NCBI RefSeq assembly: GCF_040904845.1
Contig: NZ_JBBDSR010000070.1
Coordinates: 10,475 to 74,474, forward strand
Source: Marinobacter sp.
GTDB taxonomy: Bacteria > Pseudomonadota > Gammaproteobacteria > Pseudomonadales > Oleiphilaceae
Direction: 5' to 3'
Length of the DNA stretch: 64,000 bases
Part shown: positions 31,117-45,927 of the stretch, in pieces
Layout: each line of letters begins with the position of its first letter
Position numbering within the stretch: the first letter of the stretch is position 1
Notes under the pieces: model-generated
Told to the model about the DNA's origin: nothing
Database searches by the model: none
The model's input: only the letters and a program-made list of their open reading frames with translations
Program-made: the position numbers and the translations under genes

Positions 31117-31192
31117 TCCCTGATAGCTCAGTTGGTAGAGCAACGGACTGTTAATCCGTTTGTCGCTGGTTCGAGCCCAGCTCGGGGAGCCA
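31117..31192 (+). tRNA. asnT: tRNA-Asn (anticodon GTT), CCA encoded
   Basis: 76-nt cloverleaf. Acceptor TCCCTGA/TCGGGGA, anticodon loop CTGTTAA, T-arm GCTGG-TTCGAGC-CCAGC, 3' GCCA. Confidence 0.95.
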
Positions 31193-38384: not shown

Positions 38385-39545
38385 ATGTCACAACCACCGA
38401 GTTCGTCAGTCCGTCACGGTACCGGACTGGACGCCGAGCGTCAGGCCGCAACACATGTCACCATAATAGGCATGTTACTGGATGCCGCTCTGGGTGTCAT
38501 TAAAGTCATCGCCGGTGCACTTTTTCATTCCCAGGCGCTGCTCGTCGACGGCATTCACTCGTTCACAGACGTCGCCTCGGACTTTGTGGTACTCGGCGTT
38601 ATGCGTGCGTCCCGCCGGGCCCCGGATCAGAATCATCCCTACGGCCACCAGCGAATTGAGACCATGGGGACCATGGTGCTCGGTAGCATACTGATCGCCG
38701 TTGGTGCGGCTCTGGCCTGGGATAATATTCTGCGGCTGATGGCCGGTGCCGGTCACCAGCTACCGGGCTGGCCCGTTCTGGTTGCAGCGGCCGCTTCGGT
38801 AATCGGAAAAGAGTGGATCTACCGCTATACCCGGCGAGTGGGAGAATCCATTCGCTCCGAACTGATCATTGCCAATGCCTGGCACAGCCGCACAGACGCT
38901 TTCTCGTCGGTGATTGTGCTGTTTTCCACCCTCGGCGCAATGGCGGGCTTTATCGTGCTCGATATCCTGGCGGCCGTGGTCATTGCAGGCATTGTGATTC
39001 ACATTGGCTGGAAATTCACCTGGAGCGCCGTCAAGGAACTGGTGGATACCGGCCTGTCACCGGAAGACACCGACAGGCTGAAAGCCATTGCCCGTGACAC
39101 CGAGGGCGTGCGCAACGTTCACGAGTTGCGCAGCCGCCGGATGGGCCACGACATCCTCCTGGATGTCCATCTGGTGGTAAGGCCTGAAATCAGCGTATCC
39201 GAAGGCCATCAGATTGGTATGCGGGTCGTGACCGGTATGCGGGATGTGCTGGACAACATCCTCGACATCAACTTCCACATTGACGCGGAAAACGACGAGA
39301 GCCACACCCAGACGTCTGAGCAACTGCCGTCCAGGGAAGACATTCACGGGTTGCTTGTGGAACACCTCGGCGAACTGCCGCCCCACACCCGAATGCACCT
39401 GCACTACCTCCGCAACAAGGTTTACATGGAGCTGTTTTTTGACTCGCCGGCCGATACACCCGCGTTCAACAGTTCCGACCTTAGCAGACAATTCGCAGGC
39501 TACCCCTGGTTCGGCAGCTTGCGGGTGTGGTCAGCCAACCCTTAA
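38385..39545 (+). CDS. Cation diffusion facilitator (CDF) family metal transporter with extended C-terminus
   Basis: CDF TM motifs are present (ALLVDGIHSFTDV, AWHSRTDA). Start trimmed from 38244 to ATG 38385 (AAGGAA Shine-Dalgarno). TATAAT box at 38351-38356. Confidence 0.85.
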   Translation: MSQPPSSSVRHGTGLDAERQAATHVTIIGMLLDAALGVIKVIAGALFHSQALLVDGIHSFTDVASDFVVLGVMRASRRAPDQNHPYGHQRIETMGTMVLGSILIAVGAALAWDNILRLMAGAGHQLPGWPVLVAAAASVIGKEWIYRYTRRVGESIRSELIIANAWHSRTDAFSSVIVLFSTLGAMAGFIVLDILAAVVIAGIVIHIGWKFTWSAVKELVDTGLSPEDTDRLKAIARDTEGVRNVHELRSRRMGHDILLDVHLVVRPEISVSEGHQIGMRVVTGMRDVLDNILDINFHIDAENDESHTQTSEQLPSREDIHGLLVEHLGELPPHTRMHLHYLRNKVYMELFFDSPADTPAFNSSDLSRQFAGYPWFGSLRVWSANP

Positions 39546-41041
39546 CGGCGGCGATTGTCTTCCATGCGGGAGAGGAACTCCTGCATGATGAGGGTGTACA
39601 GCTCGCCCCCCAGAAAACGGTCCTCCACGCCAGCGTCAATACTCGGGTTGTCGTTCACTTCAATGACCGCCACGCGGTTGCCCGACTGTTTGATATCCAC
39701 GCCATACAGGCCGTTGCCAATCAACCGGGTGGCATTCAGCGCCGCCTGAATCACATTTCGCGGTACCTCGTAGGTGGGCATGGTTTCGAAGCCGCCGCTG
39801 CCCACCTCCGCACCACCATGCTGATAAATCTGCCAGTGGCCTTTCACCATGTAATATTTACACGCGTAGATGGCCCGGCCACCCAGCACGCCGATTCGCC
39901 AGTCATAATCGGTATACAAATACTCCTGAGCGAGCACCAGCGCGGACTGTTTGAACAGTTCCTTTAATCCGGCTTTCAGGGATTTTTCATCCTCGGCCTT
40001 GTTGACCCCACGGGAGAACGCACCATCGGGAATCTTGATCACCGCCGGAAAGCCCAGTTCGCGGATTACCTGCTCTGAGGCATCCTTCTGATCCTTAGAC
40101 AGAATCAGGGTCCTCGGTGTCGGTACTTTGTTGTTTTTCAGCAGATCCGCGAGAAACACTTTATTGGTGCAGCGCAGGATGGAAACCGGATCATCGATCA
40201 CCACCATGCCCTCCGCTGCAGCCTTGCGGGCAAACCGGTAGGTGTGATGATCAATGGCCGTCGTTTCGCGAATAAACAGCCCGTCGTATTCCGGCAGGCG
40301 CATGTAATCGCGGCGGGTAATCTGCTCTACGTTGATGCCCAGCTTCCGCCCGGCTTTCTCGAACCGGCTGAGGGCGATCTTGTCACTGGGCGGCATTTCC
40401 TCTTCCGGATTGACCAGCACTGCCAGGTCGAAGCGGTAGCGGCGACGGGTGCGGGGCTTGCGCCACACCATGCTGCTGAACCGATCAAAGGCAGCGGCAA
40501 AAACATCCTGCTCTTTTTCGTTGAGATCCGCCGGTGCGGCCGGCTTCATGGACGCTATCTGCCAGGTCTTCCGGCGCTTGAAGACCACCTCCAGAATCGG
40601 GCAGGGAAAGCGTTCAAACAGCGCGCGGGCAACCGGCTTCAGATCCGCATGGCTGGCCTGGCCGAAAAAGGTGCGGATGCGCACTTCGTGAGTGGCATTG
40701 CGGTCGTCACTGGCCGGGTCAATTTCAGAACCGGCGGCCTCCAGCCAGGTCATGACACTGGCATCCAGCTCTTCAAGCTCAAGAGAGAACAGCCCTTTGC
40801 GACTCAGGTCATTCAGGGTCATCACCGATGGCACCACATGATGCCCCCGCGCTTCGGCAAGCAGGGAACAGTAATACCCGCGGCTCAGATACTTCGCACT
40901 CTGGCACAGGTTGATCACCCGCACCCGGCTCGCCGCTGGGGCCGAAAACTGAAGATACTGATCAAAAGTAAGCACGTCTTCGCTGGGGTAATAAGGTGCC
41001 CAGTCTTTGGCGCGATCCACGACGATAAGCAAACGGGACAT
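39542..41041 (-). CDS. RimK-family ATP-grasp ligase with about 200-aa N-terminal RimK-associated domain
   Basis: The C-terminal half is RimK-type ATP-grasp (GFPAVIKIPDGAFSRGV, IGVLGGRAIYACKYYM, YGVDIKQSGNRVAVIEVNDNPS). Start trimmed to ATG 41041 (GGGAGGA Shine-Dalgarno). Confidence 0.85.
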   Translation of the reverse strand: MSRLLIVVDRAKDWAPYYPSEDVLTFDQYLQFSAPAASRVRVINLCQSAKYLSRGYYCSLLAEARGHHVVPSVMTLNDLSRKGLFSLELEELDASVMTWLEAAGSEIDPASDDRNATHEVRIRTFFGQASHADLKPVARALFERFPCPILEVVFKRRKTWQIASMKPAAPADLNEKEQDVFAAAFDRFSSMVWRKPRTRRRYRFDLAVLVNPEEEMPPSDKIALSRFEKAGRKLGINVEQITRRDYMRLPEYDGLFIRETTAIDHHTYRFARKAAAEGMVVIDDPVSILRCTNKVFLADLLKNNKVPTPRTLILSKDQKDASEQVIRELGFPAVIKIPDGAFSRGVNKAEDEKSLKAGLKELFKQSALVLAQEYLYTDYDWRIGVLGGRAIYACKYYMVKGHWQIYQHGGAEVGSGGFETMPTYEVPRNVIQAALNATRLIGNGLYGVDIKQSGNRVAVIEVNDNPSIDAGVEDRFLGGELYTLIMQEFLSRMEDNRRR

Positions 41042-41235
41042 GCAGGTCCTCCCTGAGGATAAATCCGCTCGATTGCCGGCAACAATACGCCCGCCCCCAC
41101 AAGCGCACAATGCTTTGAAGATGCGTGCTTTTACGCATGATGGCGCTATTTGCGCTTGCCCGACTCTCTACCATAATAGCGTGATACGGGAAGCCTGCGA
41201 GCCGCCCCGACCACGATGTACCAAGGCACGTATTT

Positions 41236-42348
41236 ATGTCCGATGTCACCCTTCGCCAAGCGAGCAGCCGCGATCTTGACGCACTGATGGAACTGGAGAA
41301 CCGCAGTTTCCGCGACGACAGGATTTCCCGCCGCAGCTTCCGTCGTTTCCTGGACATGCCCCGGGATCGTCTGGTGGTCGCGGAACTGAACAACCAGCTC
41401 ATCGGCTATTGCCTGGTACTGATGAACGCCGCCACCAGGCTAGCGCGGATCTATTCCCTTGCGGTGTCACCGACGGCTCGTGGTCGCGGCGTTGGCGAAA
41501 TGCTCATTCGGGAAGCCGAGAAAGAGGCGGCTGAGGCCGACCGCATCGTTATGCGCCTGGAGGTGCGTGACGACAACGCAGCTGCAATCAACCTCTACAA
41601 ACGGCTGGGGTACCGACAATTCGGCACCTATCGAGATTATTACGAAGACCACGGTGACGCCTTACGCTTTGAACGCCGGATTCTGTTTTACGAACCGTCC
41701 CGCGAGTTTCCGAAAGTGCCCTATTACCCGCAGACCACGGAATTTTCCTGTGGCCCGGCCGCGCTGATCATGGCGATGGCTACTCTGGACGAGAAACAGC
41801 CAGTCACCACCCTGGAGGAACTGAAGATCTGGCGCGAGGCCACCACCATTTTCATGTTGGCCGGTCATGGCGGCTGCGGCCCTCACGGCCTGGCACTGTC
41901 AGCGTGGCACCGGGGTTTTCACGCCAGCGCCTGGATCAGCAAGGAAGGTGCGCTGTTCAAGGACACGGTGAGAAACGACGACAAGAAGCGGGTTCTGGAG
42001 CTGGTGCATGAAGGGTTCCTGCACGATATCGGGCAGACCGGCATCGCCATCCACCACGATCCACTGACCCTTGCAGGCATGGAATCAGCGCTGCATGAAG
42101 GCCACGTGCCGGTGATCCTGATCAGCACCTGGCAGCTCAACCGCAGCCGGGTGCCGCACTGGGTCACTGTGTGTGCCATCGATGACCAGTTCGTCTACCT
42201 GCACGATCCGGAGATCGATGTGCACGCCGGCGAAACCATGGCCGACAAGCAATACCTGCCGATCGATCGCCGGGTGTTCGACAGGATGTCGCGCTACGGC
42301 AGTAACCAGCCACTGCAGGCCGCGGTCATTGTCGGACCGCGACGTTAA
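41236..42348 (+). CDS. GNAT N-acetyltransferase fused to a papain-fold (C39-like) cysteine peptidase domain
   Basis: GNAT acetyl-CoA loop RGRGVGEML at aa 82-90. C-terminal domain has Cys172 (EFSCGPAAL), His308 (PHWVTV) and Asp324 (LHDPE) in Cys..His..Asp order. Confidence 0.8.
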   Translation: MSDVTLRQASSRDLDALMELENRSFRDDRISRRSFRRFLDMPRDRLVVAELNNQLIGYCLVLMNAATRLARIYSLAVSPTARGRGVGEMLIREAEKEAAEADRIVMRLEVRDDNAAAINLYKRLGYRQFGTYRDYYEDHGDALRFERRILFYEPSREFPKVPYYPQTTEFSCGPAALIMAMATLDEKQPVTTLEELKIWREATTIFMLAGHGGCGPHGLALSAWHRGFHASAWISKEGALFKDTVRNDDKKRVLELVHEGFLHDIGQTGIAIHHDPLTLAGMESALHEGHVPVILISTWQLNRSRVPHWVTVCAIDDQFVYLHDPEIDVHAGETMADKQYLPIDRRVFDRMSRYGSNQPLQAAVIVGPRR

Positions 42349-42353
42349 TACAG

Positions 42354-44414
42354 CTAGCCGGTTCGCAATGCCGCTTCCTTCAGTTCGGCGATGTCGTCCC
42401 GCAGGCGGGCGGCTTTCTCGAAATCCAGCTCGGACGCCGCCTTGTACATATCGTCCTCCAGGCGCGCCATCTCCTTGAGCACCTCCTGCGGAGACTTGTT
42501 GCCCGTTCTGGCCCGATACTTCTCGGCCTCTTCGGCCGCTTTCTGCCCCGGGCGCTCAGCCTTGCGGCGACCCCGGCCACCGCTACCGGCTCCCTCCATA
42601 ATATCAGCGACCTTCTTATTCAGGCCCTTGGGGGTAATACCATGCTCCTCATTGTGCGCCGCCTGTTTCGCCCGGCGTCGGGCCGTCTCGTCAATGGCCC
42701 GCTGCATGGAGCCGGTGATCCGGTCGCCGTAGAGTATGGCTTTGCCATTCAGGTTACGGGCTGCCCGACCAATGGTCTGGATCAATGAACGCTCGGAGCG
42801 CAGGAAACCCTCCTTATCCGCATCCAGAATACACACCAGTGAGACCTCGGGCATATCCAGCCCTTCCCGCAGCAGGTTAATACCCACCAACACATCGAAT
42901 TCACCCCGGCGGAGGTCACGGATGATTTCAACCCGCTCAACGGTGTCGATATCGGAGTGCAGGTAACGCACTTTTATATCGTGTTCCATCAGGAAGTCGG
43001 TCAGATCTTCCGCCATGCGTTTGGTGAGTGTGGTCACCAGCACCCGTTCTTTGACTTTCACCCGGGAATGGATCTCGGAGAGCAGGTCATCCACTTGGGT
43101 CGAGGCGGGCCGCACTTCGATTGCCGGGTCCAGCAGCCCGGTCGGGCGGACCACCTGCTCAACCACCTGCCCGGTATGCTCGGCCTCGTAGTTGCCAGGC
43201 GTGGCGGAGACAAAGATCATCTGCGGCGCTATCCGCTCCCACTCATCAAAACGCATGGGCCGGTTGTCGAGCGCTGACGGCAGGCGGAAGCCATACTCCA
43301 CCAGGGTTTCTTTGCGCGACCGGTCGCCTTTGTACATGGCACCGATCTGAGAGACGGTCACGTGGGATTCATCCACCACCAGCAGCGCGTTGGGTGGCAG
43401 GTAATCAAACAGCGTCGGCGGTGCTGCGCCGGGACGCCGGCCAGAAAGGTACCGGGAGTAGTTCTCAATGCCATTGCAGTAGCCCAGCTCCAGCATCATC
43501 TCGATGTCGTAGCGGGTGCGCTCTTCCAGGCGCTGGGCTTCGACCAGACGGTTGTTGTCACGCAACTGTTGCAAGCGGCCGTCCAGCTCAACCTTGATGT
43601 GTTCAACGGCATCCAGCACGGTTTGTAGGGGCGTGACGTAGTGGGATTTCGGGTATACGGTCACCCGCGGTACGCGGCGCAGAACCTCCCCGGTGAGCGG
43701 GTCGAAGTAACTGAGGTTTTCCACCTCGTCGTCGAACAGCTCGATGCGGATGGCTTCCTTTTCGGATTCCGCCGGAAACACGTCAATCACATCGCCGCGA
43801 ACACGGTAGTTGGCCCGGTGAAACTCGATGTCGTTGCGGGTGTACTGCAGCTCCGCCAATCGCTGCAGAATGTAGCGCTGATCGATCTGGTCACCCCGAT
43901 CCAGATGCAGCATCATTTTCAGGTAGGACTGGGGATCCCCCAGGCCATATATCGACGACACCGTCGCCACAATGATGGCGTCTGGCCGCTCCAGCAGCGC
44001 CTTGGTGGCCGACAACCGCATCTGTTCAATATGCTCGTTGATGGACGCATCTTTTTCGATGAACGTGTCCGACGACGGTACGTAGGCCTCAGGCTGGTAA
44101 TAGTCGTAGTAGGACACAAAGTATTCCACGGCGTTGTCCGGAAAGAACTCCCGGAACTCACCATACAACTGCGCGGCCAGCGTCTTGTTGTGGGCCATGA
44201 CAAGGGTGGGCCGCTGCACCTGCTGGATAACATTGGCGACGGTGAACGTCTTACCGGACCCGGTCACCCCCAGCAAGGTCTGGTGCGCAAGACCGGACTG
44301 GATACCGTCCACCAGCTCCTCAATCGCCTTGGGCTGGTCGCCCGCTGGCTGGAACGGGGAATCGACCTTGAACGCGCCGTCTTTCATCAGCGCGCCAGTT
44401 TCTGAAGTAGCCAT
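42354..44414 (-). CDS. uvrB: Excinuclease ABC subunit B
   Basis: Full-length UvrB (GVTGSGKTF Walker A, DESH box, C-terminal UVR domain). ATG 44387 is an alternative start. Confidence 0.97.
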
Positions 44415-45851: not shown

Positions 45852-45927
45852 TCCCCGATAGCTCAGTTGGTAGAGCAACGGACTGTTAATCCGTTTGTCC
45901 CTGGTTCGAGCCCAGGTCGGGGAGCCA
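45852..45927 (+). tRNA. asnT: tRNA-Asn (anticodon GTT), CCA encoded
   Basis: 76 nt and differs from copy 1 at 3 positions. Two of these are a compensatory swap in the T-stem, and one converts a T.G acceptor pair to C-G. Confidence 0.95.

Follow-up and report, generated by a model that had tools for sequence, protein, structure and literature searches.

What does a RimK-type ligase make when its gene stands next to that of an acetyltransferase carrying its own peptidase-like domain? The question is raised by two divergently transcribed genes in a stretch of 64,000 nucleotides from Marinobacter sp. (NCBI RefSeq assembly GCF_040904845.1, contig NZ_JBBDSR010000070.1, positions 10,475 to 74,474 of the forward strand), which at its full length is called the window below. 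One gene encodes a ligase with an N-terminal RLAN domain and a C-terminal RimK-type ATP-grasp half, and the other a fusion of a GNAT acetyltransferase with a papain-fold, C39-like domain, DUF3335. The two-gene feature is genuine, its distribution is unremarkable, and a chance origin of the pair is excluded by the Pfam E-values and by hundreds of orthologues. We propose, with a probability of roughly 40%, that the pair forms a cytoplasmic module that would ligate amino acids, probably glutamate, onto a carboxylate, N-acetylate the product and cleave it, a free peptide being the favoured product.

Co-localisation across genomes had been set as a test by an earlier note on this DNA, and the two genes proved to be linked whichever of them was taken as the starting point. 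On the fusion side, each GTDB species was represented by one genome in a pattern scan, which gave at least 595 confirmed relatives, and among the best 80 loci examined the RLAN ligase was linked in 72 of the 77 informative ones, with 47 divergent as in the window, 16 co-directional with the fusion gene upstream and 9 with one intervening gene. The eight negative loci comprised three contig ends and five others (three Alcanivorax-type, Allopseudospirillum and Cellvibrio). On the ligase side, 80 metagenome loci (L081-L160) were examined, and a cognate GNAT was adjacent in 67 of 78 informative loci; 41 loci had the GNAT-C39 fusion, 26 a stand-alone GNAT and 11 neither, and two were too short. The linkage spans the Gamma- and Alphaproteobacteria and several gene orders. 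The fusion gene also occurs on megaplasmids or chromids of Azospirillum and Tistrella, and in A. brasilense the ligase gene lies 35 bp downstream of it. A published table of Pseudomonas fosmids likewise places a 'RimK family protein' beside a GNAT (PMC9756463). Outside Marinobacter, the examined loci held no other conserved neighbour of the pair apart from the accessory genes described below.

The 26 stand-alone GNATs, which belong to a high-GC lineage, are divergent, RimI-like proteins of 150-210 amino acids (aa) without the peptidase domain, and they score 80.6 bits against the rimI equivalog, under its cut-off of 86.4. Loci of this kind include L100, L104, L106, L108, L110, L115, L117 and L120-L123. 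Because these 26 of the 67 GNAT partners lack the peptidase domain, the conserved core is the RLAN ligase with its cognate GNAT, and the papain-fold domain and a further protein, DUF2817, are frequent accessories. The trio of ligase, transferase and peptidase that the earlier note had pictured therefore held as regards the domains present, but not as regards the peptidase belonging to the core. The intervening gene mentioned above encodes DUF2817 (PF10994, E 5e-98), whose match to the AstE/AspA catalytic domain stays below threshold; in several gammaproteobacterial lineages it lies directly upstream of the GNAT-C39 gene and overlaps it, and it is present in 11 of the 80 metagenome loci. Insertions of this gene were seen at L050 (8872-9999), L053, L054, L055, L057, L063 and L075, and at L055 it stands beside the fusion gene with no ligase nearby. 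An M42-like peptidase occurs at one locus. In the GNAT-only lineage, inspection of translated neighbours by eye suggested oligopeptidase B-like, Kef-type transporter, ankyrin-repeat and DapF proteins, which were set aside as lineage synteny.

Four database proteins, P0355 (623 aa), P0373 (409 aa), P0333 and P0371, have unusual domain chains. Two of them join DUF3335 to RLAN, as GNAT + DUF3335 + RLAN or as DUF3335 + RLAN, and are either true fusions or frameshift or assembly artefacts; in the others, DUF3335 is present twice in tandem and a GNAT is absent. Three contigs from metagenome-assembled genomes, L010, L048 and L058, labelled Thermodesulfobacteriota, Bacteroidetes and Klebsiella pneumoniae, carry a gammaproteobacterial-type pair and are probably mis-binned; the L010 protein is 84% identical to the Marinobacter protein.

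The C-terminal half of the ligase had been read earlier as a RimK-type ATP-grasp, and this reading was confirmed. PF08443 matches aa 293-469 (E 4e-11), and hhalign aligned the protein with E. coli RimK at a probability of 97.8%, with the Mg- and ATP-binding residues in register: K336, D449, E461 and N463 correspond to RimK K141, D248, E260 and N262, and R258 and R382 to RimK R64 and R189. All six residues are at least 95% conserved across 39 diverse homologues, and the catalytic region also includes Q372-E373. Foldseek with the AlphaFold2 model of the ligase (predicted local distance difference test, pLDDT, 79) ranked RimK first, at a template modelling score (TM) of 0.8 on the target, followed by LysX/ArgX and then by D-Ala-D-Ala ligases. 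The protein nevertheless scores below both relevant cut-offs, with 84.6 against 143.4 bits for the RimK family (TIGR00768, rimK_fam) and 38.1 against 331 bits for the S6-glutamate ligase equivalog (NF007764). The ATP-grasp proteins treated in publications on Klebsiella CfmP, Shewanella vesicles and transposon sequencing in Paraburkholderia belong to other families.

The substrate contacts of RimK allow a finer comparison. In RimK, R64, R189 and N262 touch the bound poly-alpha-glutamate chain, and S7, R8 and S14 hold the distal part of the poly-glutamate/S6 tail (PMC10092738). The first three have equivalents in the ligase, as given above, whereas the last three have no counterparts in the hhalign alignment, in which residues 1-52 of the RimK query had been entered by hand. 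With the same N-terminus, the alignment begins at RimK Y13 and places S14 opposite A223 of the ligase. The S7-R8 loop is replaced by an NPEEEMPPSD loop that is six residues longer, acidic, and invariant in its Pro-Ser.

Upstream of the ATP-grasp, PF14401 matches aa 27-183 with 165.8 bits against a cut-off of 25, which makes the protein a member of the RLAN family. The N-terminal segment of about 200 aa, already described as absent from E. coli RimK, is indeed extra, because the E. coli and Pseudomonas structures of RimK cover no more than aa ~247-487 in the alignment. The conserved block of RLAN begins at aa 1 and bears the signature VINLC...GYYCSLLAEARGH.V.PSV, and N44, C46, G55, Y56, Y57, R65 and P71 are among its invariant residues. 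Profile searches with RLAN returned no solved structural relative and no other Pfam match. The domain (aa 1-203, 40432-41041) does align colinearly, if weakly, with the pre-ATP-grasp and central region of the same protein (39545-40432): YYCSLLAEARGHHVVPSV stands opposite YRFARKAAAEGMVVIDDP and W160-Q-I opposite W381-R-I, and the order of secondary-structure elements matches. At an hhalign probability of 1.5% and a P of 0.033 this homology is too weak to claim; from these sequence features, RLAN may be a degenerate, duplicated ATP-grasp half.

In the fusion protein, PF00583 covers aa 15-126 (E 5e-21), and the acetyl-CoA loop RGRGVGEML, from which a GNAT had been recognised earlier, lies at R82-L90 and follows the pattern R/Q-x-x-G-x-G/A in homologues. 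When the domain is aligned with RimI (structure 2cnm), E109 falls on E103 and Y121 on Y115. With the catalytic Glu/Tyr and the acetyl-CoA loop kept, the domain passes the rimI equivalog TIGR01575 (97.7 against 86.4 bits), and the best fold matches of the AlphaFold2 model of the fusion protein (pLDDT 90.9; predicted TM, pTM, 0.77) are the N-alpha-acetyltransferases RimI, Ard1 and Naa (TM ~0.9 on the target). The protein as a whole falls short of PRK09491 (41.7 against 173 bits), and at 370 aa with a fused DUF3335 it differs from RimI, a single domain of about 150 aa. Many public records call it 'ribosomal protein S18-alanine N-acetyltransferase', a name that stems from the score of the GNAT domain above the TIGR01575 cut-off. 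The name is probably an over-annotation, since a peptidase is fused to the domain and the ligase partner is fixed.

The second half of the fusion protein belongs to PF11814, 'Peptidase_C39 like', with 272.8 bits against a cut-off of 25 and coverage of profile positions 1-205 of 206. Searched with a profile of DUF3335 alone, solved structures yielded a single credible relative, 6mpz, a C39 double-glycine protease domain (E 2.6e-5), and both catalytic motifs, Q166...C172 and H308...D324, align with it. The triad of Cys172, His308 and Asp324 that had been proposed in canonical order is thus present and conserved: in 52 diverse fusion proteins Q166 is kept in 51, C172 in 43, H308 in 49 and D324 in 50. 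The order Gln, Cys, His, Asp and the predicted secondary structure are those of the papain fold (clan CA), and the AlphaFold2 model, in which C172 is predicted at the N-terminus of a helix and H308 and D324 on a beta-hairpin, is consistent with the papain arrangement. The bacteriocin-type C39 cut-offs were not reached (PF03412, 19.6 against 22 bits; PF13529, 20.9 against 24 bits), and Foldseek with the whole-protein models matched only the GNAT or ATP-grasp parts. The features of the locus are collected in Table 1.

Table 1. Positions of the gene pair and its features within the window.
Feature	Position	Strand	Basis
Ligase gene (RLAN + RimK-type ATP-grasp), 499 aa	39542..41041	-	Open reading frame; stop codon included
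Pre-ATP-grasp and ATP-grasp region, aa 204-499	39545..40432	-	PF08443; RimK structure alignment; hhalign; Foldseek
Predicted Mg ligands D449, E461, N463	39653-39697	-	Alignment to RimK
RLAN domain, aa 27-183	40493..40963	-	PF14401, E 7e-49
Divergent intergenic region, 194 bp	41042..41235	.	Sequence; alignment of 12 Marinobacter species
GGAGG ribosome-binding site of the ligase gene	complement of 41048-41052	-	Intergenic sequence
Palindrome ATGCGTGCTTTTACGCAT	41121-41138		Near-invariant in the Marinobacter alignment
Fusion gene (GNAT + DUF3335), 370 aa	41236..42348	+	Open reading frame; stop codon included
RimI-like GNAT domain, aa 13-143	41272..41664	+	TIGR01575; alignment to RimI 2cnm; fold matches
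DUF3335 papain-fold, C39-like domain, aa 161-366	41716..42333	+	PF11814, E 2e-81
Q166	41731-41733	+	Residue mapping
C172	41749-41751	+	Residue mapping
H308	42157-42159	+	Residue mapping
D324	42205-42207	+	Residue mapping

Considering the above results, we propose a plausible model in which the pair would act as a self-contained cytoplasmic module that brings three enzyme activities to bear on one short peptide. The RLAN-RimK-type ATP-grasp enzyme would activate the carboxylate of the substrate as an acyl-phosphate and then add an L-amino acid, most likely glutamate and possibly repeatedly, through an alpha-peptide bond. The RimI-like GNAT would acetylate the free alpha-amino end of the substrate or product with acetyl-CoA, and the DUF3335 papain fold, through Gln166, Cys172, His308 and Asp324, would cut the peptide for trimming or turnover; in some lineages the putative zinc hydrolase DUF2817 may add to this cleavage step or replace it. 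The product would be a free, small, N-acetylated acidic peptide similar to N-acetylaspartylglutamate (NAAG) or N-acetyl-glutaminyl-glutamine amide (NAGGN), rather than a ribosomal S6 tail. The identity of the domains, their intact catalytic residues and the linkage of the genes are shown by the data; which amino acid is added and to which acceptor, in what order the steps run and what the module does for the cell is what we infer. The same general logic was put forward by Burroughs and Aravind for other pairs of ATP-grasp and GNAT enzymes (PMC4431377).

Several observations argue for a free peptide of this kind. The tail-binding residues of RimK are not kept, and the accessory hydrolases, with DUF2817 weakly AstE/AspA-like and the other M42-like, resemble classes that turn over N-acyl-amino acids and small peptides. 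There are also precedents, by analogy, in which a GNAT is paired with a RimK-like or ATP-grasp ligase: Ngg, a fusion of GNAT and ATP-grasp encoded beside an M42 hydrolase, makes NAGGN, and NAT8L together with RIMKLA/B makes NAAG. RimK itself polymerises free glutamate. No conserved small open reading frame that could encode a precursor or carrier was found near the pair in 130 loci, the apparent ones being out-of-frame shadows of larger genes, and no linkage to rpsF, rpsR or any gene for a substrate protein was seen in the examined loci, in line with the earlier statement that no substrate gene is nearby; this pattern, too, would favour a small free product.

Other points weigh against our proposal. 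The scheme gives no explanation of what RLAN does. Where RimK has S7, R8 and S14, the ligase has a longer loop whose Pro-Ser is invariant, which makes even the glutamate-chain chemistry uncertain. The core function does not depend on cleavage, because the peptidase is absent from about 39% of the partners and the catalytic Cys is missing from 9 of the 52 fusion proteins. Since rimK of E. coli is also unlinked to its substrate gene rpsF, the lack of such a gene near the pair is no guide to whether the substrate is a free peptide or a protein. The GNAT is nearest to acetylators of protein N-termini, and the ligase to RimK and LysX/ArgX, which act on protein C-termini, so that a protein substrate fits equally. 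Finally, no experimental study of RLAN, DUF3335, DUF2817 or this pair was found in the literature searched. With a probability slightly lower than that of our main proposal, the pair, with DUF2817 where present, would serve the synthesis, capping and turnover of an undescribed N-acetylated alpha-oligo-amino acid, either free or as the tail of a protein other than S6, with RLAN as a catalytically dead, duplicated ATP-grasp half that would select the acceptor. If true, such an N-acetylated oligo-amino acid would give RLAN, DUF3335 and DUF2817 their first functions.

The affinity of both catalytic domains to protein-modifying enzymes keeps one rival serious, although we regard it as rather unlikely. 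According to this explanation the module writes, caps and erases a tag on proteins: the ligase would extend the C-terminus of a housekeeping protein such as bS6, the GNAT would acetylate an N-terminus such as that of bS18, the partner of bS6, and the C39-like domain would trim the tag as RimB does. The closest relatives in sequence and fold do act on proteins (RimK and LysX/ArgX for the ligase, RimI, Ard1 and Naa for the GNAT, which passes the rimI equivalog), C39 enzymes are peptide endopeptidases, and RLAN could dock a protein substrate. RimK and the protease RimB form an established pair of writer and trimmer in Pseudomonas (PMC10092738). The ligase nevertheless stays under the S6-ligase and rimK_fam cut-offs and has lost the distal poly-glutamate contacts, the examined loci tie the pair to no ribosomal or other protein gene, and the peptidase is dispensable in many lineages.

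A biosynthetic role in which the papain-fold domain joins rather than cuts is less probable again. The domain would then be a transacylase or transpeptidase like CtaG, BtrH or a phytochelatin synthase-like enzyme, moving an acyl or peptidyl group from a Cys172 thioester to an amine and making an amide-linked metabolite with the ATP-grasp enzyme. CtaG, for which transacylase activity in partnership with an ATP-grasp enzyme has been proven, groups with BtrH and PF11814 in HHpred (PMC7183216), and around the His/Asp motif the DUF3335 profile gave a weak match to BtrH-N proteins (E 0.03). Against this, the strongest solved match, 6mpz, is a true protease, the papain-fold domain is missing from many partner genes, and no carrier protein, decarboxylase, transporter or other biosynthetic gene was linked to the pair in the examined loci.

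A graspetide- or microviridin-like set for a ribosomally synthesised and post-translationally modified peptide, with an ATP-grasp macrocyclase, a GNAT, a C39 leader peptidase and a precursor encoded elsewhere, is very unlikely. Microviridin clusters contain the same three enzyme classes, and the graspetide ligase PsnB is among the fold matches of the ligase model, at ranks 44 and 47, but the ligase is much nearer to RimK and LysX than to graspetide ligases and the module lies amid housekeeping genes with no linked transporter; we rejected this explanation as no precursor lies near the pair. Least likely of all is that the genes are mere neighbours with unrelated functions, to which the divergent transcription in the window and the 5 GNAT-C39 loci and 11 ligase loci with no partner in their flanks might point, since their adjacency outlasts three gene orders and a spread across classes while all other neighbours change, and possible fused forms exist in databases. 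A role in anti-phage defence was also rejected, with 0 families assigned to the two proteins by the PADLOC models and no phage homologue of the ligase found.

Returning to the window, the two open reading frames, their divergence across the spacer and the flanking CDF transporter and uvrB genes were as the earlier note had described them. The ligase starts at an ATG preceded by a ribosome-binding site, and its orthologues in Marinobacter have the same length, with 84-91% identity. The nearest relatives of both proteins are from Marinobacter; an identical fusion protein was found only in one assembled SRA run, where the gene calls have the same two lengths. The pair is flanked on one side by rlmKL, pyrD and the CDF transporter gene and on the other by uvrB and an aspartate aminotransferase gene, and neither gene of the pair has a paralogue in the window, which also lacks a DUF2817 gene. 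The convergent neighbours almost touch the pair (39542-39545; 42348-42354): the CDF transporter reading frame shares 4 bp with the stop end of the ligase gene, the stop of uvrB comes 5 bp past that of the fusion gene, and neither junction showed a terminator-like hairpin. The + strand also carries two tRNA-Asn(GTT) genes, at 31117-31192 and 45852-45927, with some 14.7 kb between them; the second is directly 3' of the aspartate aminotransferase gene. The spacer between the pair is poorly conserved among the 12 aligned Marinobacter species apart from the palindrome and the blocks GCAACAATACGCC, CACAAT and ACCATAATAG; it contains a -10-like CATAAT block, and a sigma-70 consensus scan of it gave no site. 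The palindrome ATGCGTGCTTTTACGCAT occurs in the spacer of 21 of 29 Marinobacter loci and beside the gene pair in no other genus, and judging from this pattern it probably serves as an operator peculiar to the genus, together with divergent promoters.

The architecture had been called uncharacterised, which holds for its experimental function but not for its cataloguing. Iyer and colleagues reportedly defined RLAN in 2009 and predicted peptide synthesis for such neighbourhoods. RLAN (PF14401) and DUF3335 (PF11814) are already Pfam families, and in NCBI records the ligase is called 'RimK family protein' and the fusion protein 'GNAT family N-acetyltransferase/peptidase C39 family protein'. A 2023 survey records the DUF3335-GNAT fusion and its kinship to PF09778, citing Iyer et al. 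2009 (PMC10318531). The locus is therefore a further case of a catalogued family without assigned function, and what this study adds is linkage quantified in both directions, the GNAT as the constant partner, DUF2817 as a third gene, and a map of the substrate contacts of RimK that are kept or lost. The module is found in at least several hundred proteobacterial species and unites three domains without assigned function, RLAN, DUF3335 and DUF2817. Its product, once worked out, would join the few systems of ribosome-independent peptide ligation, alongside RimK, NAAG, NAGGN and cyanophycin; working it out would also correct a widespread S18-acetyltransferase annotation and show the role of a RimK-type ligase with an extra N-terminal domain.

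Among known systems, RimK of E. coli and of Pseudomonas, the latter with RimB, resembles the module in its ATP-grasp subfamily fold, its Mg/ATP residues, the equivalents of R64, R189 and N262, and the pairing of a ligase with a peptidase. In contrast, the ligase in the window has the extra 200-aa RLAN, a remodelled acceptor loop and scores under the family cut-offs, and is partnered by a GNAT-papain fusion instead of a retropepsin. The likeness to RimI and to Ard1/Naa lies in the equivalog score, the Glu/Tyr pair, the acetyl-CoA loop and the fold; unlike RimI, the GNAT is fused to a peptidase domain of 210 aa and stands with an RLAN ligase instead of in a tsaB-rimI context. With the C39 double-glycine peptidases (LahT150, PDB 6mpz) and with PF09778/GUCD1, DUF3335 shares the papain fold and the aligned Gln...Cys and His...Asp motifs in the same order, but it has about 80 extra residues with the signature E195-x3-W199-R-E201...G-H-G-G-C, remains under the PF03412 and PF13529 cut-offs, and is cytoplasmic with no linked ABC transporter.

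An ATP-grasp enzyme that shares its amide product with a papain-fold Cys enzyme is met in CtaD/CtaG of closthioamide, in BtrJ/BtrH of butirosin and in the glutathionylspermidine synthetase/amidase of E. coli. CtaG has been related to PF11814 by HHpred (PMC7183216). Compared with CtaD/CtaG and BtrJ/BtrH, the module lacks carrier proteins and a decarboxylase, its ligase belongs to another clade, and the GNAT is additional. From the Ngg trio (GNAT + ATP-grasp fusion, amidotransferase and M42 hydrolase) the module differs in having no amidotransferase, and TIGR03103 gives only a weak, local match confined to the GNAT (40 against 569 bits). By functional analogy, however, Ngg and the set of NAT8L and RIMKLA/B with ASPA/GCPII would share with it the joining of an acetyltransferase, a ligase and a hydrolase around an N-acetylated di- or oligopeptide, and the accessory hydrolases of the module, weakly AstE/AspA-like in DUF2817 and M42-like in the other case, are alike to those of these systems.

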